From positions 9,907 to 73,906 of the IMG/VR virus record IMGVR_UViG_3300022695_000133: a stretch of DNA of 64,000 nucleotides. One strand, written 5' to 3'. Under the pieces are notes generated by a model. The model saw only the letters and a program-made list of their open reading frames with translations, ran no database searches and was not told the origin of the DNA. Positions 8,860-64,000 of the stretch are shown here, piece after piece. Origin of the DNA: a virus. Made by a program: the position numbers and the translations under genes. Position 1 is the first letter of the stretch. Every line of letters starts with the position of its first letter.

Positions 8860-9292
8860 TATAAAAAAATTAAATCCTTTAGCTAAAATACCAAAGTATG
8901 CAAAATATGGGGACGCTGGTATGGATTTAACCGCAGTATCAAAAAGTTTTGATAAATATGGAAATATTTCATATGGTACTGGATTAGCAATTGAGATACC
9001 ACCTAAACATGTGGGATTGATATTCCCAAGAAGTAGTATTTCAAAAAAACATTTAAATCTGGCAAACTCTATTGGTATGATTGATAGTGGATACCGTGGA
9101 GAAATTATTTGTAAATTCAAACCAACGCCTCATTTTACAATTGATAATAAAGAATATCCAGAAAATTATGAAATAAATGATAGAATCGCACAAATACTGA
9201 TTATTCCATTTTTGGATATAGAATTTAATGAAACTGATATATTATCAGAAAGTGAGAGAGGAAATAATGGTTTTGGTAGTAGTGGAGAGTGA
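8849..9292 (+). CDS. dut: Trimeric dUTPase
   Basis: GDAGMDL, FPRSS, GMIDSGYRGEI, RIAQ, RGNNGFGSSG motifs. Confidence 0.97.
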   Translation: MKVNIKKLNPLAKIPKYAKYGDAGMDLTAVSKSFDKYGNISYGTGLAIEIPPKHVGLIFPRSSISKKHLNLANSIGMIDSGYRGEIICKFKPTPHFTIDNKEYPENYEINDRIAQILIIPFLDIEFNETDILSESERGNNGFGSSGE

Positions 9293-9423
9293 AATTAATA
9301 ATTATTCACTACAAAACAAATAGATTATGGATTTAAAAGGTAATAATATATTTCTTACATATTAACAAACCTACGGAATTAATGAGTTTTATAACAAATT
9401 TATAAAAAAATAATCAAATACTT

Positions 9424-11076
9424 ATGATAACAATAGGATTTTGTACTAGGAAAGATAATCAAAAGCACATAAATCATTTAAAAAAATATGCAGGTCATCC
9501 AAAAGTAGAGATAATTCAAATAATTAATGATGGGAATAGGTCAATAACAGAGTGTTATAATGAAATATTCGATAAAGCCACGTATGACACTATATTATAC
9601 GTACATGATGACGTTACATTTCAAACTAAACAATTTGCGTCTAAAATTATTAAATTATTTAATAATAATCCAGAATATGGAATAATTGGGGTTGCTGGAA
9701 CGAAATTCTTATCTAAAAGTGGAATTTGGTGGGAAAAAAGAAATAAAATGTATGGGAGGGTATCCCATACACATAACGGGAAAACACTTTTATCCAAATA
9801 TAGTGATGACTTAGGCAATGACATTGAAGATACTGTAGTTATTGATGGCGTGTGCTTTTCAATTAGAAAATCTAGAATAAAAAATAAATTTAATGAGTCT
9901 GTTAAGGGATTTCATTTTTATGATATTAATTTTTGTTTAGAAAATTATTTAAATGGGGTAAAAATTGGTGTTTCAACCAAAATTAAAATTACTCATTTAT
10001 CTATTGGGGTAACAAATGATAAGTGGGAGGAAAATAGAAAAATATTTGCTAAAAAATATGAGAATGTTTTACCAATTAAAATTGATAAAATTTATAAAAA
10101 AAACCATAGATTTAAAGTTTTAATTGGATGCTTAAGCTTTAAATCATTTACTGGCTCTGAATTATATATATATGAATTAGCCAAAGGATTGGTTAGTAAT
10201 GGGTGTGATGTTACAATTTGTTCTGAAATTGGTGGTGAATTAGCTAAAAAAGCCAAATCTAAGGGCATTAAATTAGTTGGAATTAAAGAACCACCAGGAT
10301 ATAAATTAGGTGATGGAAATTGGGAATTAATAGATAATAATGGGAATAGAGCAAAATCGATTAATAATAAATTATATCAAATAGAAAATATATCATTTGA
10401 TATTTTACATTTAAATCACAAACCAATAGGGGACTATTTACTTAAATTATACCCAAATACTAATGCGATAAGCACGATTCATTCAGAGGTTATTAGTTTA
10501 GAAGAGCCAGTAATACATAAAAATATAAAAAAATATATTGCAATAAGACCAGAAATTAAGAATCATCTAATTAAAAATTATAAAATACCCAAAGAAAATA
10601 TTGATGTTATTTATAATCCAATAGATGAAACGAGATTTAAACCAACTAAATCGATTTTAAGCCATTCTAACAAACGAATATTGTTTGTTGGAACGTTAGA
10701 CTATCTTAGAAAGGAAATGCTTTTAGAGTTAGCCAATACCACAAAAAAAGAAGGTAACGAGCTATGGATTGTTGGTAAAGAAAATGGTGTAACAATTAAT
10801 GAAATAGAAAATATAAATCCAAATGTGAAATATTTTGAACCAACATGGGGTGTTGAAAAATATATAAAACAATGTGATGAAACGGCTGGGATACTATTAG
10901 GGAGAACTACCATTGAGGGTTGGATGTGTGGGAAACCAGCTTGGATATATATTATTAATAATAAAGGAAATATAATTTCTAAATCAATTAATAATCCACC
11001 AGGCGATATTAATAAATTTTACGCTTCATTTGTTAGTGATGAAATATTGAAAGAATATAAAAATATTTTGAAGTGA
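9424..11076 (+). CDS. Two-domain glycosyltransferase (GT2-like N-term + GT4-like C-term)
   Basis: N: YVHDDV, GIIGVAG, VVIDG, FHFYD. C: FTGSELYIYELAKGL, IYNPIDETRF, GRTTIEGWMCGKP. Confidence 0.85.
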   Translation: MITIGFCTRKDNQKHINHLKKYAGHPKVEIIQIINDGNRSITECYNEIFDKATYDTILYVHDDVTFQTKQFASKIIKLFNNNPEYGIIGVAGTKFLSKSGIWWEKRNKMYGRVSHTHNGKTLLSKYSDDLGNDIEDTVVIDGVCFSIRKSRIKNKFNESVKGFHFYDINFCLENYLNGVKIGVSTKIKITHLSIGVTNDKWEENRKIFAKKYENVLPIKIDKIYKKNHRFKVLIGCLSFKSFTGSELYIYELAKGLVSNGCDVTICSEIGGELAKKAKSKGIKLVGIKEPPGYKLGDGNWELIDNNGNRAKSINNKLYQIENISFDILHLNHKPIGDYLLKLYPNTNAISTIHSEVISLEEPVIHKNIKKYIAIRPEIKNHLIKNYKIPKENIDVIYNPIDETRFKPTKSILSHSNKRILFVGTLDYLRKEMLLELANTTKKEGNELWIVGKENGVTINEIENINPNVKYFEPTWGVEKYIKQCDETAGILLGRTTIEGWMCGKPAWIYIINNKGNIISKSINNPPGDINKFYASFVSDEILKEYKNILK

Positions 11077-12131
11077 AAACAGTCATAACAATCACTGGAA
11101 TTAGACCAGATTTTATACGAATGTCAGAGATATTCAAAAAATTGGATAAAAATTTTAATCATATTTTAATTCATAGTGGACAGCATTATGACACTAAATT
11201 ATCTTTAATTTTTTTTAAAGAATTAAATATAAGAATTCCAGATTATAACCTAAATATTGGTGGACCAAATAAGGAACATTTTGAACAAACTGGGGAATTA
11301 TCAATTAAATTAATTAAATTAATAAGAGATGAAGAATTAAATCCTGATTTGATAATATTTTTAGGTGATTCAAATTCTGTGGTATCATCTATTGCATTAA
11401 AAAAAGAAGGCTATAAAATAGCACATATTGAAGCTGGTATGCGTTCTGGTGATAAAAGAATGCTAGAAGAAATTAACCGAATGGTTTGTGATACATGCAG
11501 CGATTTTTTGTTTGTTTATCATGAAAACTACAAAAATAAATTAAAAAAAGAAAATATTAAAAATAATGTTTATGTAGTCGGAAACACAATAGTTGAAATC
11601 ATCAATAAATATAAACCCACCCCAGTTAAAGTAAAAAAACATATTATTTTAGATATACATAGACCAGAAAATTTTAATAATAAAAATAGGCTAGAAAACA
11701 TCGTATCATATTCTAATAGTGTATCATATATGAATAAATTACCAATTTATCTAATTGGATTTCCAAGAACTCTTAATAAATTAAAGGAATTTAATATAAA
11801 TTTAGGTAATATTAAAATAATTGAATTATTATCATTTAAAAAATATTTAAAAAAAATAAACGAATCTAAATTTATTATTTCTGACTCTGGAACCGCACAA
11901 GAAGAACCAGCATTATTAGGCATTCCAGTTATAGTTCCTAGAGATTTTACGGAAAGACCTGAATCAATTGAAAATAATTGTTCATTTATGATAGATGTAA
12001 ACACCATGAATAATAGCACATGGTGTAATAGTATGGCATGGCTAAAAATATACGATAAAGTAGAAATAGAATGGTTAGGGGACGGAAAAACATCTGATAA
12101 AATCATAAACATCATTAAAAATAAAATATGA
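11073..12131 (+). CDS. wecB: UDP-N-acetylglucosamine 2-epimerase (non-hydrolysing)
   Basis: GIRPDFIRM, HSGQHYD, LGDSNS, AHIEAGMRS, SDSGTAQEE, TERPE; GTG start overlapping upstream TGA. Confidence 0.95.
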   Translation: MKTVITITGIRPDFIRMSEIFKKLDKNFNHILIHSGQHYDTKLSLIFFKELNIRIPDYNLNIGGPNKEHFEQTGELSIKLIKLIRDEELNPDLIIFLGDSNSVVSSIALKKEGYKIAHIEAGMRSGDKRMLEEINRMVCDTCSDFLFVYHENYKNKLKKENIKNNVYVVGNTIVEIINKYKPTPVKVKKHIILDIHRPENFNNKNRLENIVSYSNSVSYMNKLPIYLIGFPRTLNKLKEFNINLGNIKIIELLSFKKYLKKINESKFIISDSGTAQEEPALLGIPVIVPRDFTERPESIENNCSFMIDVNTMNNSTWCNSMAWLKIYDKVEIEWLGDGKTSDKIINIIKNKI

Positions 12132-14462: not shown

Positions 14463-15236
14463 TTGAATAAAAAAGTATCCATAATATTACCATATTATAA
14501 TAGAAAAAATTTATTATTGAATACTTTAAAAAGTTTTAATAAGTTTTATGAAAATAAAAATGTTGAAGTAGTAATAATAGATGATGGCTCAAACTCTGAA
14601 AATAGACTTGAAGACTCACTTAATTTTAATTTAAATATAAAGTTAATTAGATTAGAAAATAAAAATGGAATTAATCCATGTTATCCTTACAATGTCGGGG
14701 TTAGAAATTCAAGTGGGGATATAATAATCCTCAGTTCACCAGAAACATTTCATACAAAAGATATGTTTGATATATCTAATAATTTTAAAAAATTAACTAA
14801 TGAAACCTATTTATTATTCTCAGTATTTTGTCTTACTGATATTACTAAATTAGAAAATATAGAAGACCAAATCCCAAAATTTCACAAGAACTTGGGCATT
14901 AATGGGTACAGTTATAATAATAATATAGGCTCTTGGTATTGCCATAGTAAGTATAGACCAAATGGGTTAAATTTTTTAAGCGCAATTACAAGAGAAAATT
15001 ATTATAAACTATCTGGGTTTGATGAACGTTTTAGATTTGGAACTGGATTTGATGATACGGAATTTAGAGATAGGCTAATTGATAATAATATCAAGTTTAT
15101 ATATCTTGATGATGCTATAGCAATACATGTAAATCATGAGGTAGTTAATAATAGTTTGCCAACAACAAATCTTAAGGTATATTTAAAAACTAAAAATTAT
15201 AAATATAAATTCAATGATAAATGGGGAAAATATTAA
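14463..15236 (+). CDS. Glycosyltransferase family 2
   Basis: VSIILPYYNRK, IIDDGS, GFDERFRFGTGFDD; TTG start; paralogue of 12128. Confidence 0.9.
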   Translation: MNKKVSIILPYYNRKNLLLNTLKSFNKFYENKNVEVVIIDDGSNSENRLEDSLNFNLNIKLIRLENKNGINPCYPYNVGVRNSSGDIIILSSPETFHTKDMFDISNNFKKLTNETYLLFSVFCLTDITKLENIEDQIPKFHKNLGINGYSYNNNIGSWYCHSKYRPNGLNFLSAITRENYYKLSGFDERFRFGTGFDDTEFRDRLIDNNIKFIYLDDAIAIHVNHEVVNNSLPTTNLKVYLKTKNYKYKFNDKWGKY

Positions 15237-16267
15237 ATATTGGGCAGATAGTTTCTTTTGGTGTTGGGGGTGCTGATAAATCTGCATTAAATTTAGTTAA
15301 GGGTTTATTAAAATTAAATGAAAATATAAAAGTAACAGTATTTTATAATAAATTTTCATTCCCAAGAAATTATGAATTAACAACAAACCCATCTAGATTT
15401 TCAGAATATAAATCATTACCATTGGATTTAATAAAAATCACCAATGTTAATGAATTAAATAATTATAATATTGATATTTTAAACACGCATAGGTCTGGTA
15501 ATGATAATTGGTTTTTACCCAATTTTGAAGCCACAAATTTTAATTTTAAAATTGTTGAAACAAATTTTCATGGTTATAATAAAACAAAATCTGATTATAG
15601 GGTATATCCATCAAAGGAGATAATAAAATACTTGCAACCAACAAAAATTCCTTATTCAATAATACCTAACCCAATCATAAGGCCTCTCACCACCCTAAAT
15701 TTAAGAGAAGAACTAAAAATAAATAATAAATTTGTGTATGGGAGAATTGGACGAGTAGATGATGAAATATATTCTAATATTAGCTTACAAGCTTATAAGA
15801 AAATAGAATCTACCGATACGTGTTTCTTATATGTTGGCAAAAACGAAAAGGCGGTATCAGACGCTAAAAAGTTAGAAATAAAAAATATAATTTTCCTAAA
15901 TCCAACAAGTGATGAAATAAAAGTTTCTAAGATATACAATACTTTTGACGTATTGTGCCATAGCACCCCATTAGGCGAAACATTTGGTAACACAATTGCC
16001 GAAGCTATGATAAACGGAAAACCAGTGGTTTCGCACATAGGTAATGGCACTTGGCCACAGGCACAAAAAGAATTATTAGGAGAAAAAAAAGAATTATTTA
16101 TAACACATGATATTATAAATTCTTATACTAATCTAATGCTTAAATTAAAAAATAATAAGAAATTCTATAATCTAATTTCTACATACTTAAAACATAGGGC
16201 GTTAGACTATTATGATTATATAAAGGTTTCAAAAAAATATTTAGAATTATATTTAGAGTTATTATGA
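15221..16267 (+). CDS. Glycosyltransferase family 4
   Basis: GVGGAD, GRIGR, ETFGNTIAEAMINGKPVV. Confidence 0.9.
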   Translation: MGKILNIGQIVSFGVGGADKSALNLVKGLLKLNENIKVTVFYNKFSFPRNYELTTNPSRFSEYKSLPLDLIKITNVNELNNYNIDILNTHRSGNDNWFLPNFEATNFNFKIVETNFHGYNKTKSDYRVYPSKEIIKYLQPTKIPYSIIPNPIIRPLTTLNLREELKINNKFVYGRIGRVDDEIYSNISLQAYKKIESTDTCFLYVGKNEKAVSDAKKLEIKNIIFLNPTSDEIKVSKIYNTFDVLCHSTPLGETFGNTIAEAMINGKPVVSHIGNGTWPQAQKELLGEKKELFITHDIINSYTNLMLKLKNNKKFYNLISTYLKHRALDYYDYIKVSKKYLELYLELL

Positions 16268-54084: not shown

Positions 54085-54146
54085 CAAAAATACGTAAAAA
54101 AAAATGAAAAAACAACTTGTTTATCTTAAAAAAAATCATATATTTG
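54085..54146. promoter_or_regulatory. Divergent Bacteroidota-type -7 boxes
   Basis: TATTTTTG on - (54092-54085) before KTSC; TATATTTG on + (54139-54146) 4 nt before the clpC ATG. Confidence 0.6.
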
Positions 54147-54150
54147 CATT

Positions 54151-54979: not shown

Positions 54980-57154
54980 ATGAAAAATTTAAAAAAAATA
55001 ATAAAATCATTCGATATGAGTGATTATAGTATACTAACTGATAGTGGGTTTGAAAAGTTAAATAAACTCCATAAAACAGTACCATATGAGGTATATCACC
55101 TTAAATTATCTAATGGTAAAGAACTTAAATGCGCTGATAATCATGTTGTATTTCAATTTGAAAATGATGAATTAACTGAAGTTTTTGTTAAAGATTTAAC
55201 TAAAGATTCGTTAATTGTTTCAAATAATAAAATAACTAATTCATTATCTAAATCTGAACTTATATCGTTAACCGATTTAAGATATAAAGAAAATATGTAT
55301 GATTTCGAATTGAGTGAAAGTGCAAATAAAAGATACTATACAAATGACATTTTATCCCATAATACAGCAATAATTGAAGGGTTGGCAACTTTAATTTATG
55401 AAGAAGAGTCTCCATTGCCATTATTAGATAAAAAAATATATTCATTAAACCTATCTTTAATTGTAGCTGGAACCAAATATAGGGGCCAGTTTGAAGAAAG
55501 AATGAAAATTATATTATCTGAATTAAAAAATAACCCGAATGTTATCTTATTTATTGACGAATTACACACTATTGTTGGCGCTGGAAATAGCACTGGTTCT
55601 TTGGATGCATCAAATATATTAAAACCAGCCTTAGCCAGAGGTGAAATTCAAATTATTGGCGCAACTACATTAGATGAATATCGAGAAAATATAGAAAAAG
55701 ATGGGGCATTAACTAGAAGATTCCAAGAAATATTGGTTGAGGAACCCACATTGCCAGAAACTATAATAATTCTTAATAAAATAAAAGAAAATTATGAGGC
55801 GTATCACAATGTTATATATTCGGATGAAATTATTAATGAAATCGCCAAGTTAAGCGATAGATATATCTCAGGTAGAGCTATGCCAGATAAAGCAATTGAT
55901 GTCTTAGATGAAGTTGGGGCATCAACTAATGTAATAATGGGCTATCCAGAAGAAATCACTAATATAAAATTAAAAATAAAAGAATTAAATGAGAAAAAAT
56001 TAAAGATAATAACTGAGCAACGTTATGAAGAGGCAGCCCTAATTAGAGATGAGGAAGATACTTTAAAACATAATCTAAATAAGAAGACAAAGTTATGGAA
56101 TGATAAAAATAAAAATAATCCAACTAAAATTACATTGGATATGGTTGCAGCATCAATGTCAATTATTACTGGAATTCCTTTAAATAAATTAACAGTGTCA
56201 GAAAATAATACTTTGAAAAATCTTGAATTAGATTTGAAAAAAATAATAATTGGGCAAGACGAAGCCATAAATAAAGTATCTAAGGCAATAAAACGTAGTA
56301 GGCTAGGTATTAAAAACAAAAAATCACCAATTGCTAGTTTTTTATTTTTAGGAAATTCTGGAGTAGGTAAAACATTTTTGTCTAAAGTTTTGGCTGATAA
56401 AGTATTTGGAGATTCAGATGCTTTAATAACAATTAATATGGGTGAATATATGGAAAAACATGCAATGTCAAAAATGATTGGGGCGCCTCCAGGTTATGTT
56501 GGATATGGAGAAGGTGGAAAATTGACCGAACCAGTTAGAAAAAAACCATATTGTGTTATTTTATTTGATGAAATAGAAAAAGCCCACCCAGATATGTTTA
56601 ATTTACTTTTACAACTATTAGATGAAGGAAGTTTAACCGATAGTAATGGCAGAAAAGTGGATTTTAAAAATACCTTGATTATTATGACTTCAAATATTGG
56701 GTCAATGGAAGTATCTAAGTTTGGTGAGAGTATTGGATATAGCAGCCAAAATAGTAGAATTATTGATGCACAAAAAAGAGCCAAAAATATTATAAAAAAA
56801 GCGTTAAAAAATAAATTTAGACCAGAATTTATAAATAGAATTGACGATATGATAATATTTAATTCATTAACTACTGAAAACATATTAGAAATTGTTAATA
56901 ATGAATTGAATTTGGTTAAAGAGCACATTAACGAACTAGGGTATGAACTAGATGTCACTAAATCAGCACGCAAATTTATTGCCAAAGAAGGTTATGATAA
57001 AGAATTTGGTGCTAGACCATTAACCAGGGCAATTCAAAAATATGTTGAAGATGTAATAGCCGACGAAATTATGAATGGTAACCTTAATAATGAAACTAAT
57101 AAAATTAAAATTAATTATACATTAAATAATGGAATAAAAGCTATAATTAACTAA
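54980..57154 (+). CDS. clpC: 128-aa C-intein fused to ClpC C-part (rest of D1, M coil, D2)
   Basis: CADNH (block B), MYDFEL (block F), ILSHN|TAIIEGLA; FIDELHTIVGAG, GNSGVGKT, GAPPGYVGY, LFDEIEKAHP, FGARPL; IntC at 54980-55363. Confidence 0.93.
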   Translation: MKNLKKIIKSFDMSDYSILTDSGFEKLNKLHKTVPYEVYHLKLSNGKELKCADNHVVFQFENDELTEVFVKDLTKDSLIVSNNKITNSLSKSELISLTDLRYKENMYDFELSESANKRYYTNDILSHNTAIIEGLATLIYEEESPLPLLDKKIYSLNLSLIVAGTKYRGQFEERMKIILSELKNNPNVILFIDELHTIVGAGNSTGSLDASNILKPALARGEIQIIGATTLDEYRENIEKDGALTRRFQEILVEEPTLPETIIILNKIKENYEAYHNVIYSDEIINEIAKLSDRYISGRAMPDKAIDVLDEVGASTNVIMGYPEEITNIKLKIKELNEKKLKIITEQRYEEAALIRDEEDTLKHNLNKKTKLWNDKNKNNPTKITLDMVAASMSIITGIPLNKLTVSENNTLKNLELDLKKIIIGQDEAINKVSKAIKRSRLGIKNKKSPIASFLFLGNSGVGKTFLSKVLADKVFGDSDALITINMGEYMEKHAMSKMIGAPPGYVGYGEGGKLTEPVRKKPYCVILFDEIEKAHPDMFNLLLQLLDEGSLTDSNGRKVDFKNTLIIMTSNIGSMEVSKFGESIGYSSQNSRIIDAQKRAKNIIKKALKNKFRPEFINRIDDMIIFNSLTTENILEIVNNELNLVKEHINELGYELDVTKSARKFIAKEGYDKEFGARPLTRAIQKYVEDVIADEIMNGNLNNETNKIKINYTLNNGIKAIIN

Positions 57155-57174
57155 ATATTTTTTTTAAGAAACTG

Positions 57175-57200
57175 AAATCCCTCTCAATGAGGGATTTTTT
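57175..57200 (+). terminator. Intrinsic terminator after clpC
   Basis: AAATCCCTC-TCAAT-GAGGGATTT plus T run. Confidence 0.85.
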
Positions 57201-57214
57201 CATATTTAAAACAT

Positions 57215-57910
57215 GTGATGAATTGCTTAATTAAAAAAATACTAAGAGAAGAATTAAATAAAATTATAATAGAAACTAATAATTTTTGGTTTCACGGAAC
57301 CCCAGACGTCAGAGAAATTGAAAAAAACTCTGGTTTTACTAATAGAAAAACATCGATAGATTATATTAAAGATATTCCAAAATATTATGAATTACAACGT
57401 AAATTAAAAATTTCACGAGAAAATAATAATGATGATGAATATTTTAAATATTTAGATTTAGTTCCGAAATATAAAGGACGCTTCACTTTCACATCTCCAA
57501 TTTTCTTAAGTAATAAGAGTAATGTAGCTAAAACATATGCTGACCCAAAAAGAAGTTTTGATTACCAAAATGCAGTATCTAAACTTATTAAAGTTACCGT
57601 GAAAAAAGGTAAAAGTGTTGAAATAATAGCACATGGTGACAGATTTAGATTTATAAATGTGGATAAGGTAAAAAAAGGGTTCGTGGATGGTGGAATTAAT
57701 GGAAATGAATTTAATGAAGTATTAAGTAGAATCAATTTCTATAATTTAAATAAAAATGGTATAAGAACAGAAATTATTGCAGCTTTGGGACAATGGTTTA
57801 ATTTTGATTATATAGATGTGATAGGTGCGCTAGATTCATATAATGGGGGAGTAATAGAATCAACTATTAGAATTATTTTAAATCCTAATACCATATCAAT
57901 AGTTAAATAG
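57215..57910 (+). CDS. ADP-ribosyltransferase-like protein
   Basis: FWFHGT ... PIFLSNKSNVAKTYA (HGT / F.S....A..YA pattern). Confidence 0.55.
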   Translation: MMNCLIKKILREELNKIIIETNNFWFHGTPDVREIEKNSGFTNRKTSIDYIKDIPKYYELQRKLKISRENNNDDEYFKYLDLVPKYKGRFTFTSPIFLSNKSNVAKTYADPKRSFDYQNAVSKLIKVTVKKGKSVEIIAHGDRFRFINVDKVKKGFVDGGINGNEFNEVLSRINFYNLNKNGIRTEIIAALGQWFNFDYIDVIGALDSYNGGVIESTIRIILNPNTISIVK

Positions 57911-57953
57911 AATTAATTAGTAACTATTTAAAAATATAAATATATTTAATATT

Positions 57954-58607
57954 ATGCCATATATCTATAAAAAAATAGGAAATAAAACTTGTGTATTCAA
58001 AAAAAATACAAAAAAATTAGTGGGCTGTACCAAAGGTAATATTAAAAAATATTTAAATGCATTATATGTAAATGAATCAATAAATGAAGAAAGTGCAGAT
58101 AAAATTGATTACATTAAAATGGATATTCCGTTATTCATACGCATGCTAGAGTTTGCAAGAGAAGATGCCAAGACAGATTTGGACTTACACTATGCAACAG
58201 AAAAATCAACAAAATTAACTAAGGAATTTGGAATCTTATCAATGGTTAATTATGATGATATTGTTCCAAATCATAATAAGACAATTAAAGAAGAAACAAA
58301 TTTAAATGTTACTGACGAATCACCAGATAGCATAACTGTAGTTGCAACATACAATAATAGAAATGCTGGACTTATATTACTAGCTAAAACTGAAAAAAGT
58401 GATACATTGGAGATAATAGGTATACGATTTTTGAAAGAATATCAAACATTGTTTATTATAAACGAAACAATTAAACAATTATTTTCAACCTTTAAAAATG
58501 TTAATCATTTTAAATTATCACCCAAACCAGATTCAATAGAATTTTGGAATAAATTAGGTTTCCAACGAATATCTAAACATTATTTAGTTCTAAATAAGGG
58601 TCACTAA
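57954..58607 (+). CDS. Hypothetical protein with C-terminal GNAT-like segment
   Basis: AGLILL ... SIEFWNKLGFQ (FW.K.GF). Confidence 0.5.
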   Translation: MPYIYKKIGNKTCVFKKNTKKLVGCTKGNIKKYLNALYVNESINEESADKIDYIKMDIPLFIRMLEFAREDAKTDLDLHYATEKSTKLTKEFGILSMVNYDDIVPNHNKTIKEETNLNVTDESPDSITVVATYNNRNAGLILLAKTEKSDTLEIIGIRFLKEYQTLFIINETIKQLFSTFKNVNHFKLSPKPDSIEFWNKLGFQRISKHYLVLNKGH

Positions 58608-58705
58608 ACTATTCTATTTTATCATTTAAAGAGAAGGTGAATTGGATTAATTATGTAGATAGCATAATAATAATGATAATAATTGTTTTTGTTAAATATT
58701 TTTAA

Positions 58706-58713
58706 TATATTTG
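58706..58713 (+). promoter_or_regulatory. Bacteroidota-type -7 box heading the small-ORF array
   Basis: TATATTTG 23 nt upstream of ATG 58737. Confidence 0.55.
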
Positions 58714-58736
58714 CATTATCTTTATATTAAAATATT

Positions 58737-59081
58737 ATGGACAAACAAGATAAATGCGTAGAAAAAGAATCTAAGAGTGCATCTAAAATAAGCAAACCTA
58801 ACTTTAGTTGGGATGATGATAAAGTTGCGGAAGTATCAAGGTTAGTGTGGGAGCATAGGAATTCATCCGAAATATGGACGGAGGATTTAACCGCAGAATT
58901 AGTTATTATTAGGAAATATAAAATTGAAAAAGCACTATCTTACCTCAAAGCTGATTTAATAATTTCAAATATCGATAATAATACAAATAATGTTATAGTT
59001 GATGGGAAAAAATTAAATGAACTTATAAAATATTTGACAAACTATCAAGCGGAATTGCATGGAGCTTTTATAGGTCAGTAA
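58737..59081 (+). CDS. Hypothetical protein
   Basis: 114 aa; stop abuts the first repeat arm. Confidence 0.7.
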   Translation: MDKQDKCVEKESKSASKISKPNFSWDDDKVAEVSRLVWEHRNSSEIWTEDLTAELVIIRKYKIEKALSYLKADLIISNIDNNTNNVIVDGKKLNELIKYLTNYQAELHGAFIGQ

Positions 59082-59090
59082 TAACGGTTT

Positions 59091-59273
59091 GTGGGTGGAA
59101 GATTTATTGGGGCTTATTTACCTGAATTTTTAGATGAAGAAGGGTTACAAACATTTATAGTGTGTCAGAATGCAAAATGCAATAAATGTGGGAAGGAAAT
59201 ACAATATAAATACCAAATAAAAGGCGACCATAATTTAACGCACGAAGCTGTTGAAAAATATTATTGTGGCTAA
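59091..59273 (+). CDS. Small Cys-rich hypothetical protein
   Basis: CQNAKCNKCG; stop TAA lies in the GGCTAAC box. Confidence 0.5.
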   Translation: MGGRFIGAYLPEFLDEEGLQTFIVCQNAKCNKCGKEIQYKYQIKGDHNLTHEAVEKYYCG

Positions 59274-59400
59274 CAATTAATAAGAATAGTGGCCGACTTT
59301 GAAATACAAATTTTGAATTAATAAATATAATTTTCAACATAGATAATAGCTTAAATAAACTGCTTAACTAGGCTATTATTCTTATTAATTGTTAGGCACA
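59265..59400 (+). repeat. Best attC-like site: 30-bp arms (27/30), GGCTAAC ... GTTAGGC
   Basis: TGTGGCTAACAATTAATAAGAATAGTGGCC vs reverse complement of right arm TGTGCCTAACAATTAATAAGAATAATAGCC; 76-nt spacer. Confidence 0.85.
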
Positions 59401-59406
59401 GTTATT

Positions 59407-59643
59407 ATGAAAAAAAAGTTTTTGGAAATTTTAAAAGAGTTGGAATTTGAACTAATTAGATACAAACACTGGAAACCAAATTTTGATTGGAATAATTATG
59501 AAATAGAGTACAAGAATAATGATGGTGAAACTTTTTTGTGGGATTGGGAAATAGACATTTGGGATAAAGACGAAGATAGTATTACTAATAATATTGGAGC
59601 ATTGAAATATTTTAGAAAGTGTGTGATGGCTAATTATACCTAA
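59407..59643 (+). CDS. Hypothetical protein
   Basis: ATG 59407; stop TAA lies in the ACCTAAC box. Confidence 0.65.
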   Translation: MKKKFLEILKELEFELIRYKHWKPNFDWNNYEIEYKNNDGETFLWDWEIDIWDKDEDSITNNIGALKYFRKCVMANYT

Positions 59644-59697
59644 CGAATAGTACAAGAGCTGTACGGAATTGAAAAATAATTATTAATTAAATAAATT

Positions 59698-59862
59698 ATG
59701 GCTAAAAGAGCTAAAAGAGCAAATATTTATTATGTAGAAACAAAAGGAACATATAGTAAAGTAGAGCAAATAGGAATAGGTATAAATAAAAACGTAACAA
59801 GATTTTTATGTGATAGTTGTAAGAATGAAGTAATAGTAAATGAAACTATTGACTTAGTATAG
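59698..59862 (+). CDS. Small hypothetical protein (54 aa) inside a repeat loop
   Basis: MAKRAKRANIYYVETKG...CDSCKNEVIVNETIDLV*. Confidence 0.55.
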   Translation: MAKRAKRANIYYVETKGTYSKVEQIGIGINKNVTRFLCDSCKNEVIVNETIDLV

Positions 59863-60168
59863 CTTTTGTACGTTGTTGGTTGTGGTATGAAATATAACGC
59901 ATTAATGGGAAATAAAGCGATTAACGTATGAGTTATAAGACATTAATGCGTTAAAAGATAAAACCAACCCAACTCATTACCGTTGAGTATAAGAAGCGTT
60001 GCGGATATTTAGCAACTAATTTAATTTGAAATAATGAATTTAATATTAACAATAATAGCCAATTTGAAAACGAATTTTAGCAATGATTTTTATACATTGT
60101 TATGTGTTGGTGTGGTCTGATTTATCACTAAATTTAATTTGATAATATTTATACATAAAGAAAATACT

Positions 60169-60621
60169 ATGAGTAAAGAAATGAGAAAACAAATAGATAA
60201 AATTAAAAACTTTGGTGAGTTTTTGAATGAAGATGTAAATGGTGACAATTTAATAAATAAACTATTATCATTTGGTGGTAAGAGTGTAAAATTGGGATTA
60301 GATACTGATACTGAGATTAGTCGTATATTAAATGATGGTATTTTACTTGACAATTCAAGAGTAATTAATGTTGAGGGTGAGCCAAATCAATGTCATAGAA
60401 ATAGTGCGTATAGATACAAAAATTACACTAAAGGATTTGGAAATGCCACAAGTGAAATAATGAGTGGTTATGCCTTATATAATAATAAGTGGGTTCAACA
60501 CAGTTGGTTACTTACTGAATTTAATTACTTAGAAGAAACAACGAATATTAATTTCAAAAAATACTTTGGATATAAATTAACTAAAGAAGAAAGTGATATA
60601 TTTTGCTATGAAAATGATTAA
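60169..60621 (+). CDS. Hypothetical protein with Cys/His motifs (CHRNS, VQHSW)
   Basis: ATG 60169 preceded by AATATTTATA (60144-53). Confidence 0.7.
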   Translation: MSKEMRKQIDKIKNFGEFLNEDVNGDNLINKLLSFGGKSVKLGLDTDTEISRILNDGILLDNSRVINVEGEPNQCHRNSAYRYKNYTKGFGNATSEIMSGYALYNNKWVQHSWLLTEFNYLEETTNINFKKYFGYKLTKEESDIFCYEND

Positions 60622-60700
60622 TGTAAGACTTACACATAACGGTCTTGATAAGATACATTGCGACATAAAAGAAACTTTTTAACTTGTAAATAAATTTAAT

Positions 60701-60925
60701 ATGAAATACTTAACTAACATTTTAGCACGATTTAAGCAATGGATTTTATCTATTGTTATATTGCGTTTTTTTTTTAAATTATTGTGTTATTGGCTGATAT
60801 TTGCTAATGATTTTATGAGTGACGCAAACACATTACACGATGAAGAGGGTATTCATTTTAATGTTATTGGTTATTTGTTTTATAAACGAAAAATATATTG
60901 GAATGGTGTTTTAAATGCACTATAA
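60701..60925 (+). CDS. Hypothetical protein spanning a repeat right arm
   Basis: Right arm encodes WILSIVIL; stop lies in the CTATAAC box. Confidence 0.6.
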   Translation: MKYLTNILARFKQWILSIVILRFFFKLLCYWLIFANDFMSDANTLHDEEGIHFNVIGYLFYKRKIYWNGVLNAL

Positions 60926-60952
60926 CGGACGAGTATAAAAAGAGTTTGAAAT

Positions 60953-61222
60953 ATGGATATAATAAAATATAAATATACTTGGATTGATGGTAAATTAACT
61001 GCAAAAGAAGAACCTCACAAACTCTTTTTATATATTGTTATATGTAGTTTTTGCCGCTGGTTATTTGAACTAATACATTTTAGACACTACCAACAGAAAT
61101 GGAACGGTCAGAAGCGATTTAAAACTATTAAGATAACAGGATTAAGAAGTGGTTTAATAGATGATATTGGGCAAAGGACAAGAATTGTGTTTTATTGGAA
61201 GATAGGCAAATATTACATATAA
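60953..61222 (+). CDS. Hypothetical protein spanning a repeat right arm
   Basis: Right arm encodes KLFLYIVIC; stop lies in the ATATAAC box. Confidence 0.6.
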   Translation: MDIIKYKYTWIDGKLTAKEEPHKLFLYIVICSFCRWLFELIHFRHYQQKWNGQKRFKTIKITGLRSGLIDDIGQRTRIVFYWKIGKYYI

Positions 61223-61266
61223 CGGAACGGTTTAAGCGCAGTTTAAGATTAATTAAAATAAATATT

Positions 61267-61506
61267 ATGGACAAAAAAGAATTAAAAATTTTAATAGAAG
61301 AATGTTGTAATGATATTTTTGAAAGATTGGAACCTTTAGCTAATGTTAAAGAAAGACTTTATAGAACACTTGAAGATAAATTGCGTTTAAACGATGTTGT
61401 ACGGCAAAGCGAACAGTACTATTGTGCTGATAGAGAAAATGCTATTGAGGATGCTAATTGCACTATACAATATGATTATTGTAAGGATATAGAACGGAAT
61501 CAATAG
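61267..61506 (+). CDS. Hypothetical protein spanning a repeat right arm
   Basis: ATG 61267; right arm encodes KLRLNDVVR. Confidence 0.6.
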   Translation: MDKKELKILIEECCNDIFERLEPLANVKERLYRTLEDKLRLNDVVRQSEQYYCADRENAIEDANCTIQYDYCKDIERNQ

Positions 61507-61567
61507 TATTGCCCACAATGTAAAAGTATATGAAAAGTGCGATTAATTAATTTTAAATTTAATAAAA

Positions 61568-61861
61568 ATGAAACATTATTTTGAAAATAAAGAAAGCGAA
61601 TATTGTCATAGAAAAAAATATTTTAATGATTTAATGATTGAAAGGGGTGTTAAGTCTATGATTGTTATAAACGCAAATAGGCTTACAGGTGAAGATATGA
61701 TGCTTTGTAAAAAATATATGGTTATGGGTGAAAAGGGAAATTGCGGTAATATTTGCAAAGATTATAAACCAAGAAACGGCAAAAGCGGTAATTGTTTACA
61801 CACAGGAGTGTTATATGAAAAGGGTGATGAAACTAAAATTTTCTTAACTAAACGAAAGTAA
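61568..61861 (+). CDS. Cys-rich hypothetical protein
   Basis: CGNICKDYKPRNGKSGNC. Confidence 0.7.
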   Translation: MKHYFENKESEYCHRKKYFNDLMIERGVKSMIVINANRLTGEDMMLCKKYMVMGEKGNCGNICKDYKPRNGKSGNCLHTGVLYEKGDETKIFLTKRK

Positions 61862-61992
61862 GTATTAATCATATACAATTATACAATAAATATGGTAAAT
61901 TTGGGTATTACTAATCGCCAAAGATTTAATAATTACCAACGAATTGTGTATGAATAATAAGCCTACGGATATTAATAATTAAATTTAATAAA

Positions 61993-62187
61993 ATGCAATA
62001 TAAGAAAGACATTGAAAAGGCATTAAAGGAAATGGAAACACGCAAAAGTAGTTACCTCCTTGATATGGCAAGTTACAAAGAACCTAATGGGGTTGTTTAT
62101 GACACTGACTTGATAAGAAAATTAGAGGTAACAGATGCAACGATACACACTTTAAAATGGATGCTACTTAAAAGGACTAAAGATTAG
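61993..62187 (+). CDS. Hypothetical protein
   Basis: 64 aa, within a repeat loop. Confidence 0.6.
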   Translation: MQYKKDIEKALKEMETRKSSYLLDMASYKEPNGVVYDTDLIRKLEVTDATIHTLKWMLLKRTKD

Positions 62188-62298
62188 TGGGGGTATTATT
62201 TATACACGTTGTTACCATTAACGCAGTTGGCGTCATTGTTTTAATGTGCACCAACGTAACTATTTAATGACAGTTTAAGAATCGAAAAATAAAATATT

Positions 62299-62619
62299 AT
62301 GAATGTATTAGATGATTGGCTAAAAAAATATGGAAATAAAGAATTTGATAAACAAATAGAGCAAGAGGCTTTAGATATTTTATTGGATGAATTAAAAAGA
62401 CTTGAAAAAGAAAATGCTAAATTTCGGTTAAACAAAGGGGCGTTGGTGAATAAGTTTACAAGTAATGATATAGATAAGGCATTTATGGTTGGTTGTATGA
62501 ATGTCGGCGGATTAGAAGGTTTAGATAAAGAGTTAAAAAGGCTTAAAGAATTAGGCTTTAAAACGCCTACAGAAGCTTTGTTGGCTATAAAAAACAGTAA
62601 ACAATTCCCACCAATGTAA
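62299..62619 (+). CDS. Hypothetical protein spanning a repeat right arm
   Basis: 106 aa. Confidence 0.6.
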   Translation: MNVLDDWLKKYGNKEFDKQIEQEALDILLDELKRLEKENAKFRLNKGALVNKFTSNDIDKAFMVGCMNVGGLEGLDKELKRLKELGFKTPTEALLAIKNSKQFPPM

Positions 62620-62672
62620 TCTTTTAAGTGCAGTTGTGTAAATTAAAAACTAAATTAAATATATATAGAATT

Positions 62673-62990
62673 ATGAATGTAGATGAATATTTTGGCATGT
62701 TTACTGGCGGAAATCATTATCTTGCTACATGGACGCCAAAAGCAATAAAAGATTTTGCAGAAGATTACCATAAGCAATAATTGCATTTAAAGGGACTTGG
62801 CAATTGTAAATTAAACAATTACCATATAAAAACCCAAGAGACTACTGGATGCTTTAATTTCTTTACTACCGCAAAGAACCATAAGGAAGCACTTAAACAG
62901 CTTTTAGAGAACTCAAGCGATTATAATAACATAGTTAAAGCGAAGAACGATTTAACAATAACCATAAAAAGAATTTACGAGCCTAAATAA
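62673..62990 (+). pseudogene. ORF interrupted by an in-frame TAA (62778-80) at a repeat right arm
   Basis: MNVDEYF...YHKQ*LHLKGLGNC... same frame on both sides. Confidence 0.5.
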
Positions 62991-63122
62991 TTTACAATTA
63001 TCAACGTGTTGTATAAGAAGCGGTGGTAATATTTTAGGAAAAATTTAATTGAAGTAATGAATTTAATATTAACAATAAGTCCCCAATAAAAAGATTTGAA
63101 GGGTTAAATAAATATAAATATT

Positions 63123-63320
63123 ATGAGAAAAGAAAATGAAACAAAAACAATTTACAACTTAGATTTAAATGAGGAATTTTATGAAAATAGCAGATTAAAA
63201 ATACAAAGAGTTGCCTCTGGATGGATATATAAGTATTATATTGAAACAAGCGCATATGGAAAATTCAAATTAAACAATACCGTTTTTGTACCTTATGATA
63301 ATAGGTTTCAAAAGACATAA
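63123..63320 (+). CDS. Hypothetical protein spanning a repeat right arm
   Basis: 65 aa; stop lies in an ACATAAC box. Confidence 0.65.
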   Translation: MRKENETKTIYNLDLNEEFYENSRLKIQRVASGWIYKYYIETSAYGKFKLNNTVFVPYDNRFQKT

Positions 63321-63643
63321 CACAGCAAGTTTAACGATTTGTATGTGATTTAGTTTGTGAAATGAATTATATTGATGAGTGGGGTTTATACCCTATTTAA
63401 TAAATAAAAAGTCGCACCAAAAAATAATTATATTAAATTAATTATCTGTAAATTTGAATATAATTAAAAATAAATTAATTTTTACTTGTGTATTTCACAT
63501 TTATTATCTATATTAGCAGAATTAATTATAAATTTAAATAATATTTGGATTTAAAAATAAAATAAAAAGCAAAGATGTAAAGTTACCCATATTTGATGTC
63601 AGCGTTTTGTTTTTGAACATTAACATACTAAAACTTTAAGAAT

Positions 63644-63985
63644 ATGGCTTATTTACATTGTCATACTTGCAATTGGTCACAAGATGATTTTTACACAAAA
63701 AGTTACAACCCATTAATAAAAATATGGAATGACATTAAGTGGACAGCAAAACCAAGAATACTTAAATTCGACACAAATGAACCTAAAAATATGGCTAAAA
63801 CAGTTTGGACACCTATATTTTATAAAGGTGGTAATGTTTTTTCTTGGAATTGGATGCTTGTAGAAATAGAACGAGATATTAGAAGTTTTATTCATATGAA
63901 ATGGTACACATGGGATAAATGGAATAAAGTAAAAAACACTGCCATTTGTCCAAAATGTGGCACAAGAAACTTCGACATTGATTAG
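63644..63985 (+). CDS. Zinc-finger hypothetical protein
   Basis: CHTCNWSQDDF ... CPKCG. Confidence 0.7.
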   Translation: MAYLHCHTCNWSQDDFYTKSYNPLIKIWNDIKWTAKPRILKFDTNEPKNMAKTVWTPIFYKGGNVFSWNWMLVEIERDIRSFIHMKWYTWDKWNKVKNTAICPKCGTRNFDID

Positions 63986-64000
63986 TGTTTTTATATATTA

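Follow-up and report, generated by a model that had tools for sequence, protein, structure and literature searches.

Genes and hairpin sites of the array

We examined a 64,000-nucleotide stretch of viral DNA (hereafter the window), bases 9907-73906 within a 79.5-kb IMG/VR fragment, in which a row of small plus-strand open reading frames (ORFs) runs from 58737 to about 64376 and is punctuated by imperfect hairpins, S1 to S13, with short conserved boxes at their outer ends. This array is probably a chain of gene cassettes belonging to an integron-like system in circulation between phages whose hosts are of the Flavobacteriia type. It does not qualify as a classical integron, since IntI is absent, it is the coding strand that folds, and junctions occur at both boxes. 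The CheckV completeness of the fragment is 22%, therefore the phage is probably large, with about 360 kb expected for the complete genome; it has a GC content of 26% and encodes a terminase, a portal and a major head protein (PHROGs assignments) as well as Clp/Lon-like genes. None of the small ORFs has a match above the curated Pfam cut-off, ORF 60169 has no PHROG match, and blastn with 57000-64000 returned no match among cultured phage records. Start codons in the window lack Shine-Dalgarno sequences, and Bacteroidota-type promoter motifs TAnnTTTG (TATATTTG) are located at 54100-54150 and 58700-58736, ahead of ORFs 54151 and 58737; together these signals indicate a Flavobacteriia-like host.

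Left boxes of the array read GGCTAAC (59268-74), ACCTAAC (59638-44), CTATAAC (60920-26), TACCAAC (61934-40) and ACATAAC (63315-21), and two further ones, ACACATAAC and ACATATAAC, end at 60640 and 61223. The right box of S1 is GTTAGGC (59391-97), and the GTT triplets of other right boxes lie at 59872, 60099, 60755, 61037, 61396 and 62208. An earlier note, made from the letters of the window, had described these as the R''-like and GTT-bearing boxes of sites resembling attC, the recombination site of integron cassettes, and they do read in this way. The five ORF stops that it placed within boxes (59273, 59643, 60925, 61222 and 63320) are all correct, gene starts lie in hairpin loops (ATG 60701, 60953 and 61267), and the extra bases of the left arms are present, with 5-7 unpaired bases on the left versus 0-4 on the right in S2, S5, S6, S8 and S11. 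Whole small ORFs are enclosed by S2, S11, S12 and S13. The AAC and GTT cores are conserved, and left and right boxes pair with each other; the complete R''/R' consensus (RYYYAAC, GTTRRRY) is matched solely by the GTTAGGC of S1, the commonest forms being (C/A)ATAAC on the left and GTTAT(A/G)T on the right. The sites differ in size: S1 measures 130 bp and has no bulge, S5 and S6 measure about 114-118 bp with an internal loop of 6-7 vs 3-4 nt, and S2, S8 and S11 span 180-280 nt.

All features given below lie on the plus strand. S1 (59263..59402) consists of a 32-bp stem and a 76-nt loop and folds at -44.8 kcal/mol; its hairpin score of 56 compares with a maximum of 37 in shuffled sequence. Its left box GGCTAAC holds the stop codon of ORF 59091-59273, and its right box is found 10 nt ahead of ATG 59407. 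The stop of the ORF that begins there (59407-59643) lies in the left box ACCTAAC of S2 (59634..59890; arms 59634-64 / 59857-90; score 30), which encloses ORF 59698-59862 and has the right box GTTGTTGG at 59872-79. S4 (59976..60106; arms 59987-60002 / 60080-95; right box ATTGTTATGTG at 60096-106) is a decayed module whose left box has mutated to ATTACCG; it contains a truncated ORF remnant of 28 codons at 60034-60120 (MNLILTIIANLKTNFSNDFYTLLCVGVV, then a stop). Next comes unit A (60098..60640), a cargo segment that runs from TGTTATGTGT to ACACATAAC and carries ORF 60169-60621 (150 aa).

Three cassettes follow. Cassette c4 (60641..60926) begins with S5 (arms 60647-61 / 60736-50), which has ATG 60701 in its loop and the right box ATTGTTAT at 60752-59; its cargo ends in CTATAAC, the stop of ORF 60701-60925, and its joined (circular) form folds as a single hairpin of -29.8 kcal/mol. 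Cassette c5 (60927..61223) begins with S6 (arms 60934-48 / 61018-32; ATG 60953 in the loop; right box ATTGTTATAT at 61034-43). The cargo of c5, unit C, has terminal inverted repeats of 19 bp (S7, 61037-55 / 61205-23) and closes with ACATATAAC, the stop of ORF 60953-61222; the circularised site forms one long hairpin of -45 kcal/mol. Cassette c4 may be a tandem paralogue of c5 that has diverged and now has a wholly different inner stem (BLASTP between the two is not significant, E 2.1). Cassette c6 (61224..61520) begins with S8 (arms 61230-45 / 61377-92; ATG 61267 in the loop; right box GATGTTGTAC at 61393-402) and has a weak hairpin, S9 (61409-24 / 61501-16), around the stop of ORF 61267-61506. 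The region upstream in c6 is 73% identical to 62253-62301.

Excess of hairpins and coding-strand pairing

We scanned for gapped hairpins with scores of 2 for AT, 3 for GC, -1 for GU, -5 for a mismatch and -6 for a gap, at a span of at most 450. Ten hairpins in 59080-63400 score at least 26, compared with a mean of 1.9 and a maximum of 4 in 30 dinucleotide shuffles, and six score at least 30 (shuffle mean 0.33). The density at the lower threshold is 2.3 per kb, versus 0.76 per kb in the remaining 79.5-kb contig; the array is thus about threefold richer at 26 and above, and about sixfold at 30 and above. RNA-fold z-scores on the plus strand are -8.1 for S1 (range -7.2 to -8.1), -5.8 for S2, -4.5 for S6, -3.8 for S8 and -3.4 for S7, followed by -3.0 for S3, -2.5 for S10 and -2.1 for S5. 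The earlier note had counted about 13 attC-like sites with arms complementary within each site. Inverted repeats are indeed present at those positions and shuffled sequences pair worse; S1, S2, S6, S7 and S8 are strongly supported, and some 5-8 of the roughly 13 are significant alone, while the remainder leans on context and about half are statistically marginal. A loose automated pairing of YAACG with the next TGTTRT was too noisy (p = 0.056).

The pairing is strand-specific. When mismatches are counted under a scoring in which G.T and A.C are equal, the window stems show 28 G.T versus 5 A.C on the plus strand (58% G.T in shuffles; binomial p = 0.001), compared with a ratio of about 1:1 in other genome blocks. 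Nine related arrays, described below, give 130 G.T versus 38 A.C on the coding strand (p about 1e-9). This excess indicates that pairing has been selected on the coding strand, either as mRNA or as single-stranded DNA. Fold z-scores of individual sites are -5.8 on the plus strand and -1.7 on the minus strand for S2, and -3.8 and -0.8 for S8.

Modules shared with unrelated phages

Unit A and the unit of ORF 60953 are found again in unrelated phage contigs at 78-92% identity, with homology ending exactly at the boxes. A homologue of ORF 60169 with 86% identity occurs on ENA contigs (represented by L117). Between L117 and the window from 54000 to its end, only 60098-60640 is held in common (88% over 544 bp); the homology begins at the right box TGTTATGTGT and stops at the AAC of ACACATAAC. 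Since the hairpins that come after unit A are unrelated between the window and L117, a hairpin is not carried along with the ORF ahead of it. A third context of unit A is contig L123, where the homologue ends at ACACATA; the possibility that L123 represents an empty site is given no support by the alignment.

ORF 60953 is found in contigs L127 and L133 at 85-91% identity, and the DNA of c5 matches them over 60920-61225 (87.6%) and 60904-61223 (91.6%), respectively, within AAC-to-AAC bounds. L127 is unrelated to the window, with 39% GC and an HK97-type terminase and portal, and it holds 5-6 additional box-hairpin-box sites. In L133, positions 228-279 resemble the left arm and leader of S2, a homology judged by eye alone. 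Unit C occurs by itself (61034-61223) in L136, where it is joined at the right box to another hairpin module, and that module is the homologue of S4. Related modules in L136 and in G001/L138 differ from S4 by compensatory stem changes (GTAT/ATAC, GTAC/GTAC, GCGT/ACGC), and the copy in G001, located by pattern search, adds two more. The S4 module is thus fused to three different downstream sequences, in the window, in L136 and in G001, where the fusion follows the right box and leads into an unrelated ORF. The ORF remnant within S4 matches an N-terminal module that is intact in L136 and G001, and it ends abruptly just past the right box, at the start of unit A. Units without any ORF were seen in L117 (10543-10664) and L127 (4876-4929).

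The family of ORF 60953 comprises 24 representatives, all of them on metagenomic contigs, with no relative among 185,579 species genomes; searches of viral contigs with the products of ORFs 60169 and 60953 gave no matches. Its members have variable N-termini and a conserved C-terminal domain, FELIHxxHY..WNGK..GLRSALVDD.GQR..FYWKIGKYYI-stop, and the conserved YYI-stop encodes the ACATATAAC box. A confident AlphaFold2 model for the family (pLDDT 87) has no significant fold match in the PDB or the AlphaFold clusters.

Apart from its copy of unit A, contig L117 (L117:1-18727; ENA ERZ27315623 k141_174261) carries about 40 small ORFs, each behind the motif TTTTGTTTTTT-N12-GTGCGTTATATATNGTAAATC. This motif often follows a terminator-like hairpin, and the GTTATAT within it is similar to the right box at the hairpin sites. 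Overall, the main L117 array forms a textbook series resembling the promoter-early/stem-loop cassettes (PeSLs) of T4-type phages, with a box-type sub-array (8960-11400) embedded within it. A distant homologue of ORF 60169 (40% identity) lies directly downstream of a ClpB-like ATPase in L125 (5040-8420) and in L126; this gene order suggests that the cargo of unit A is an old protease neighbour in the wider phage group.

A Xer-like recombinase adjoins related arrays

In the complete 51.7-kb phage G001, the hairpin chain stops 50 bp upstream of a gene for a 272-aa tyrosine recombinase (PF00589, E 1.9e-29). This protein reaches 92.7 bits with the IntI model TIGR02249 (cut-off 265) and 158 bits with NF040815 (cut-off 220). 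Its best NCBIfam model is XerA/integron integrase, below the cut-off, and its nearest structures are XerA (4a8e, 5hxy), with IntI4 only partly aligned. Judged by these comparisons of sequence models and structures, the recombinase beside the related arrays is Xer-like and not IntI. Of its homologues, at 34-39% identity, at least four (on IMG/VR contigs L144, L145, L146 and L150) are preceded by a regular array, and those on L143 and L147 by shorter runs. In these arrays hairpins of about 110 nt (a stem of about 20 bp and a loop of about 70 nt) alternate with segments of 230-390 nt bounded by 14-16-bp GTTATnnnn...nnnnATAAC repeats; all lie on the strand of the recombinase gene, and some loops contain a start codon. 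In L145, L146 and L147 the conserved integrase-proximal region starts right after TAAC, and in L150 one hairpin has been duplicated exactly, from TAAC through GTTAT.

The same recombinase family, annotated as integrase, is present in Freya_1 to Freya_10, cultured phages of Polaribacter whose records are of unequal length and place the integrase at varying distances from their start. The paper describing these phages reports the size range and one integrase, and no cassette structure (PMC8776804). Relative to Freya_10, a block of small ORFs that immediately precedes the integrase is missing from Freya_1 (4.9 kb) and from Freya_5 (3.2 kb), with base-precise junctions. With the junction marked by a slash, Freya_10 reads TTGTTGCTAAC/ACCCCTATAAC on the way into the integrase gene, Freya_1 reads TTGTTTACAAC/ACCCCTATAAC and Freya_5 reads TTGTTACCAAC/ACCCCTATAAC. 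The sequences on the left in Freya_1 and Freya_5 are left boxes, and in Freya_10 these are followed by hairpins. The crossover partners have AAC alone in common, and one integrase-proximal site has been used twice, as predicted for site-specific recombination at an attI-like site, attI being the fixed insertion site of an integron. A gene for an HNH endonuclease stands directly after the Freya integrase (L151:4969-5592 in Freya_10; 872-1495 in Freya_1).

Other sites and neighbouring features

Several lesser sites complete the array. S3 (59875..59975) is bounded by GTTGG...CCAAC, holds no ORF and has a perfect 13-bp stem (59895-907 / 59941-53). S10 (61863-80 / 61942-59) and S11 are marginal alone; the latter has its left box, TACCAAC, at 61934-40, arms at 61946-59 / 62194-207 and the right box GTTGTTAC at 62208-15, and encloses ORF 61993-62187. 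A short GTT...AAC segment without an ORF occupies 62208-62257. S12 (62621-37 / 62777-93, around ORF 62673-62780) and S13 (62797-813 / 62988-63004, around ORF 62781-62990) are weak and could be due to chance. S13 is followed by an adjacent pair of left and right boxes, ATCAACGTGTTGTAT, at about 63000-63014, and by a second, truncated copy of the S4 type (63000..63078), with the left arm and half of the loop, ahead of ORF 63123-63320, whose stop lies inside ACATAAC. The two S4-type copies form an 80-bp direct repeat (59976-60055 and 63000-63078; 71-89% identity; 24-nt perfect core TAATGAATTTAATATTAACAATAA). Ten ORFs lie between the two copies, which could recombine and thereby delete about 3 kb.

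The array ORFs are not found in the nearest relatives of the phage picked via its ClpC-like protease (L001-L116, at most 71% identity). A hairpin-density scan of these contigs gave GC-driven or unrelated signals only, for example in L061 and L044. In L044, a region of 1.4 kb without ORFs downstream of the protease (14692-16090) carries the 14-nt motif TGTAATTGAGCATT about 10 times in both orientations; this region has no relation to the hairpin sites and may represent an origin or a cluster of binding sites. A pattern by which the GTT would always be an in-frame Val codon was discarded, as it fails in L136, in L146 and at 62441.

A model of cassette exchange

The presence of a Xer-like recombinase beside related arrays, together with the gain and loss of blocks exactly at the boxes, argues for integron-like gene shuffling. 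The earlier note had proposed a recombinase-driven, shuffleable array. Units are shared, gained and lost at the boxes in the relatives, and a recombinase adjoins their arrays (G001, L144, L145, L146, L150 and Freya), and this part of the proposal stands; there is none in the window. The unit-wise change for which related phages were to be compared was found in Freya_1 and Freya_5 vs Freya_10, in L117, L127, L133 and L136, in L145/L146/L147 and in L150. Two of its expectations did not hold: the associated enzyme is Xer-like instead of IntI-like, and most breakpoints, as in c5 and Freya, fall at the AAC of the left box rather than within the GTT.

We tentatively extend this interpretation, at slightly less than even odds, to a hitherto undescribed system in which a phage Xer-family recombinase acts on coding-strand hairpins with crossover at AAC, allowing IntI-independent capture of cassettes both in temperate (Freya) and in large virulent flavobacterial phages, with the site serving as a portable translation-start module and the cassettes crossing between unrelated phages. 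In the underlying interpretation, which we hold probable, a cassette would extend from one AAC to the next, with the hairpin first and the cargo second. The hairpin site would consist of a left box (Y)ATAAC, 5-7 unpaired bases, a site-specific stem of 15-20 bp, a loop of about 70 nt in which the leader and start codon belonging to the cassette gene are often found, the matching arm of the stem, and a right box (T)TGTTAT; the gene would then continue past the right box to the next ATAAC, often its stop codon. When a cassette is circularised, the terminal inverted repeat of its cargo (such as the 19 bp of S7) would stack on the inner stem (S6) to give a long attC-like hairpin with an internal loop, a model that accounts for both kinds of pairing in the window.

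The Xer-family tyrosine recombinase of the temperate relatives would perform strand exchange at the AAC/GTT core, insert cassettes at the attI-like site that immediately precedes its gene, and also excise them or swap them between sites. We infer that it catalyses the events described above and that its substrate is folded coding-strand DNA and not mRNA. Cleavage of this strand would take place in the 5' arm, at AAC, which fits the strand bias and the junctions after AAC, and which mirrors the action of IntI on the attC bottom strand. The window array is presumably still active, moved by an enzyme encoded elsewhere in the genome or supplied by a co-infecting or resident phage. Under the tentative extension, with leader, ATG and N-terminal codons borne in the loop, captured fragments could be expressed at once, and N- and C-terminal parts could be recombined in frame.

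Several observations weigh against this interpretation. Junctions are found both after AAC and before GTT, which a single crossover point does not predict; the left border of unit A and the fusions of S4 and of unit C are right-box junctions, and these would require either that the other strand be used or that exchange take place at a second point. No integrase is encoded in the window, as the earlier note had stated, and a domain search widened to the whole 79.5-kb contig revealed no Phage_integrase (PF00589), Y1_Tnp or Resolvase domain, which makes the array resemble a cluster of attC sites lacking integron-integrases (CALIN); the examined parts of L117 and L127 also contain no recombinase. 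Temperate-phage integrases often adjoin variable accessory regions, so co-location alone is weak evidence. Fold z-scores are weak for S11 (-1.95), S12 (-1.8) and S13 (-1.15) and not significant for S4, most of the pairing is gone from the paralogous site at 62253-62447, and in the L127 copy of c5 both S6 and S7 are weakened by three substitutions. Finally, the coding-strand G.U bias and the gene starts in or near stems fit an mRNA structure equally well: the right arm of S1 covers -36..-5 of ATG 59407, and the left arm of S6 covers -19..-5 of ATG 60953. A role in mRNA, such as translational coupling, may coexist with recombination.

Alternative explanations

The hairpins could instead be structures of a polycistronic early mRNA, involved in translational coupling, in sequestering or presenting initiation regions, or in processing and stability, as in PeSLs; exchange would then occur by ordinary or microhomology recombination at the boxes, and the neighbouring integrase would serve lysogeny only. 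We consider this unlikely, though a serious contender. It would explain why the pairing bias is on the sense strand, why arms of S1 and S6 overlie initiation regions and why an upstream stop codon is placed just ahead of the stem. Host-type promoters TAnnTTTG precede 54151 and 58737 only, a distribution suggestive of a single long transcript; L117 has in its main array a PeSL-like series of promoter-plus-terminator motifs; and the occurrence of junctions at both boxes agrees with recombination wherever a stretch is conserved. Shuffling mediated by PeSLs has been documented (PMC2839356, PMC4122927). However, the Freya junctions share 3 nt (AAC) and involve the same partner site twice, which is hard to obtain via homology-driven recombination. 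The box is kept in phages of unrelated types and differing GC content (the window phage, the HK97-like L127 and the Freya siphoviruses), in at least six lineages the arrays immediately precede a Xer-like recombinase gene, and the GTT...AAC units without ORFs and the exact TAAC-to-GTTAT duplication of a hairpin are left unexplained. Two hallmarks of PeSLs are likewise absent from the window array: sigma-70-like sites (46 against 38.4) and terminator-like sites (2 against 1.1) are not enriched, and the 80-bp pair is the only direct repeat.

Alternatively, the array could be a fragment of a classical integron, a CALIN with true attC sites for a bacterial IntI that came from, or is exchanged with, host integrons, a kind of acquisition described in certain virulent phages. 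The S1 site, with its perfect R' box GTTAGGC and its length of 130 bp, would suit such an origin, as would the AAC/GTT cores, the asymmetric spacers and the stops in R''-like boxes; CALINs have been predicted in phages including a Polaribacter phage, and IntI1 recombined 5/6 sites (PMC9892861). In contrast, the recombinases of the related arrays are Xer-like, that of G001 scoring below the IntI cut-off, and the bias is towards the coding strand, whereas attC folds on the bottom strand. The hairpin separates from its upstream ORF, as unit A demonstrates, most junctions are at the left-box AAC, many right boxes (GTTATAT, GTTATGT) fall outside GTTRRRY, gene starts lie in the loops, and the ORF 60953 protein has no relatives among the species genomes. 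This origin is therefore very improbable.

We attach no greater probability, and perhaps a shade less, to the possibility that the GTTAT...ATAAC units are miniature transposons of the miniature inverted-repeat transposable element (MITE) or insertion sequence (IS) kind, with the hairpins as nested insertions. Terminal inverted repeats of 9-19 bp, the unrelated contexts and the ORF-less units in L117 and L127 are what such elements would show, but there is no target-site duplication around unit A or c5, the inverted repeats differ past a core of 5-7 nt, no array holds a transposase, and the units are strictly head-to-tail with shared boxes and not dispersed. IS200/605-type ends were discarded in view of the large loops and the lack of a Y1 transposase. 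Among RNA-based candidates, translational bypassing was rejected because take-off and landing codons do not match, and self-cleaving ribozymes or other known RNA families because no Rfam family matched in 58000-64000. That the repeats arose by chance in AT-rich sequence is scarcely credible, and is refuted for the strong sites: at 26% GC, S4, S11-S13 and 61240/61543 do fall within the shuffle range, but the array exceeds shuffles five- to eighteen-fold at scores of 26-30 and above, and compensatory changes, a strand-specific mismatch bias and coinciding junctions would be left without a cause.

Significance and comparison with known systems

If the model is correct, phages of a major marine and freshwater bacterial group possess a parallel gene-capture system that uses another recombinase clade and another site geometry. 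This would account for the spread of ORFan accessory genes across unrelated phages at about 90% nucleotide identity and for kilobase-scale differences beside the integrase between isolates of a single phage species. The system is directly testable in the cultured pair of Freya and Polaribacter sp. HaHaR_3_91, and its sites could become a recombination tool and a marker of accessory (defence or counter-defence) gene pools in viromes.

PeSLs are promoter-early/stem-loop cassettes in the hyperplastic regions of T4-type phages (Arbiol et al. 2010, PMC2839356; Comeau et al. 2014, PMC4122927). As with PeSLs, small ORFans are arrayed in a large virulent phage, stem-loops and expression signals lie between the ORFs, and breakpoints fall there. 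Unlike PeSLs, which are near-identical direct repeats that recombine by homology, the sites of the window share a core of 5-9 nt and each hairpin is unique; the AAC junctions are base-precise, and the related arrays are tied to a tyrosine recombinase.

Two other systems built on tyrosine recombinases also bear comparison. In CTX-type integrative mobile elements exploiting Xer (IMEX), whole phage genomes integrate at the chromosomal dif site by means of host XerCD, and there are no cassette arrays; the likeness is that a Xer-family enzyme would act on a hairpin of one-strand phage DNA. Shufflons (Rci) and multiple-inversion systems have long identical repeats, and their inversions swap C-termini. 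The present arrays recall them in that a short core, ATAAC or GTTAT according to orientation, recurs alternately along coding DNA, with a tyrosine recombinase close by in the relatives; they differ in that deletions, insertions and replacements are seen and the segments are internally self-complementary.

Integrons are the paradigm of rapid gene capture in bacteria; IntI is considered essential to them, and in phages they are regarded as rare and incidental. The arrays resemble integrons and CALINs in several respects: single-gene cassettes are arranged head-to-tail between imperfect hairpins in which only the outer AAC/GTT cores are conserved, the inner stems differ from site to site yet are self-complementary, an asymmetric spacer is unpaired at several sites, and stops lie in left boxes. 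In related phages a tyrosine recombinase and one fixed insertion site adjoin the array, cassette blocks vary among strains, and arrays free of a recombinase also exist. There are also differences. The recombinase, of about 270 aa, is Xer-like, co-oriented with the array and downstream of it instead of divergent, pairing is on the coding strand, and junctions fall mostly after the left-box AAC and also at the right box. The hairpin stands at the 5' end of the cassette, often with the leader, the start codon and the first 18-45 codons, and cassettes have 9-19-bp terminal inverted repeats and site spans of 110-300 nt. To our knowledge, a recombination site that carries the start of a gene is a new idea for cassette systems. 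Earlier work described CALINs and a small number of integrons from phages, a Polaribacter phage among them, and assayed them with IntI1 (Qi et al. 2023, PMC9892861); it draws no link to a phage Xer-like recombinase, a coding-strand fold, junctions after AAC or gene starts within the site.

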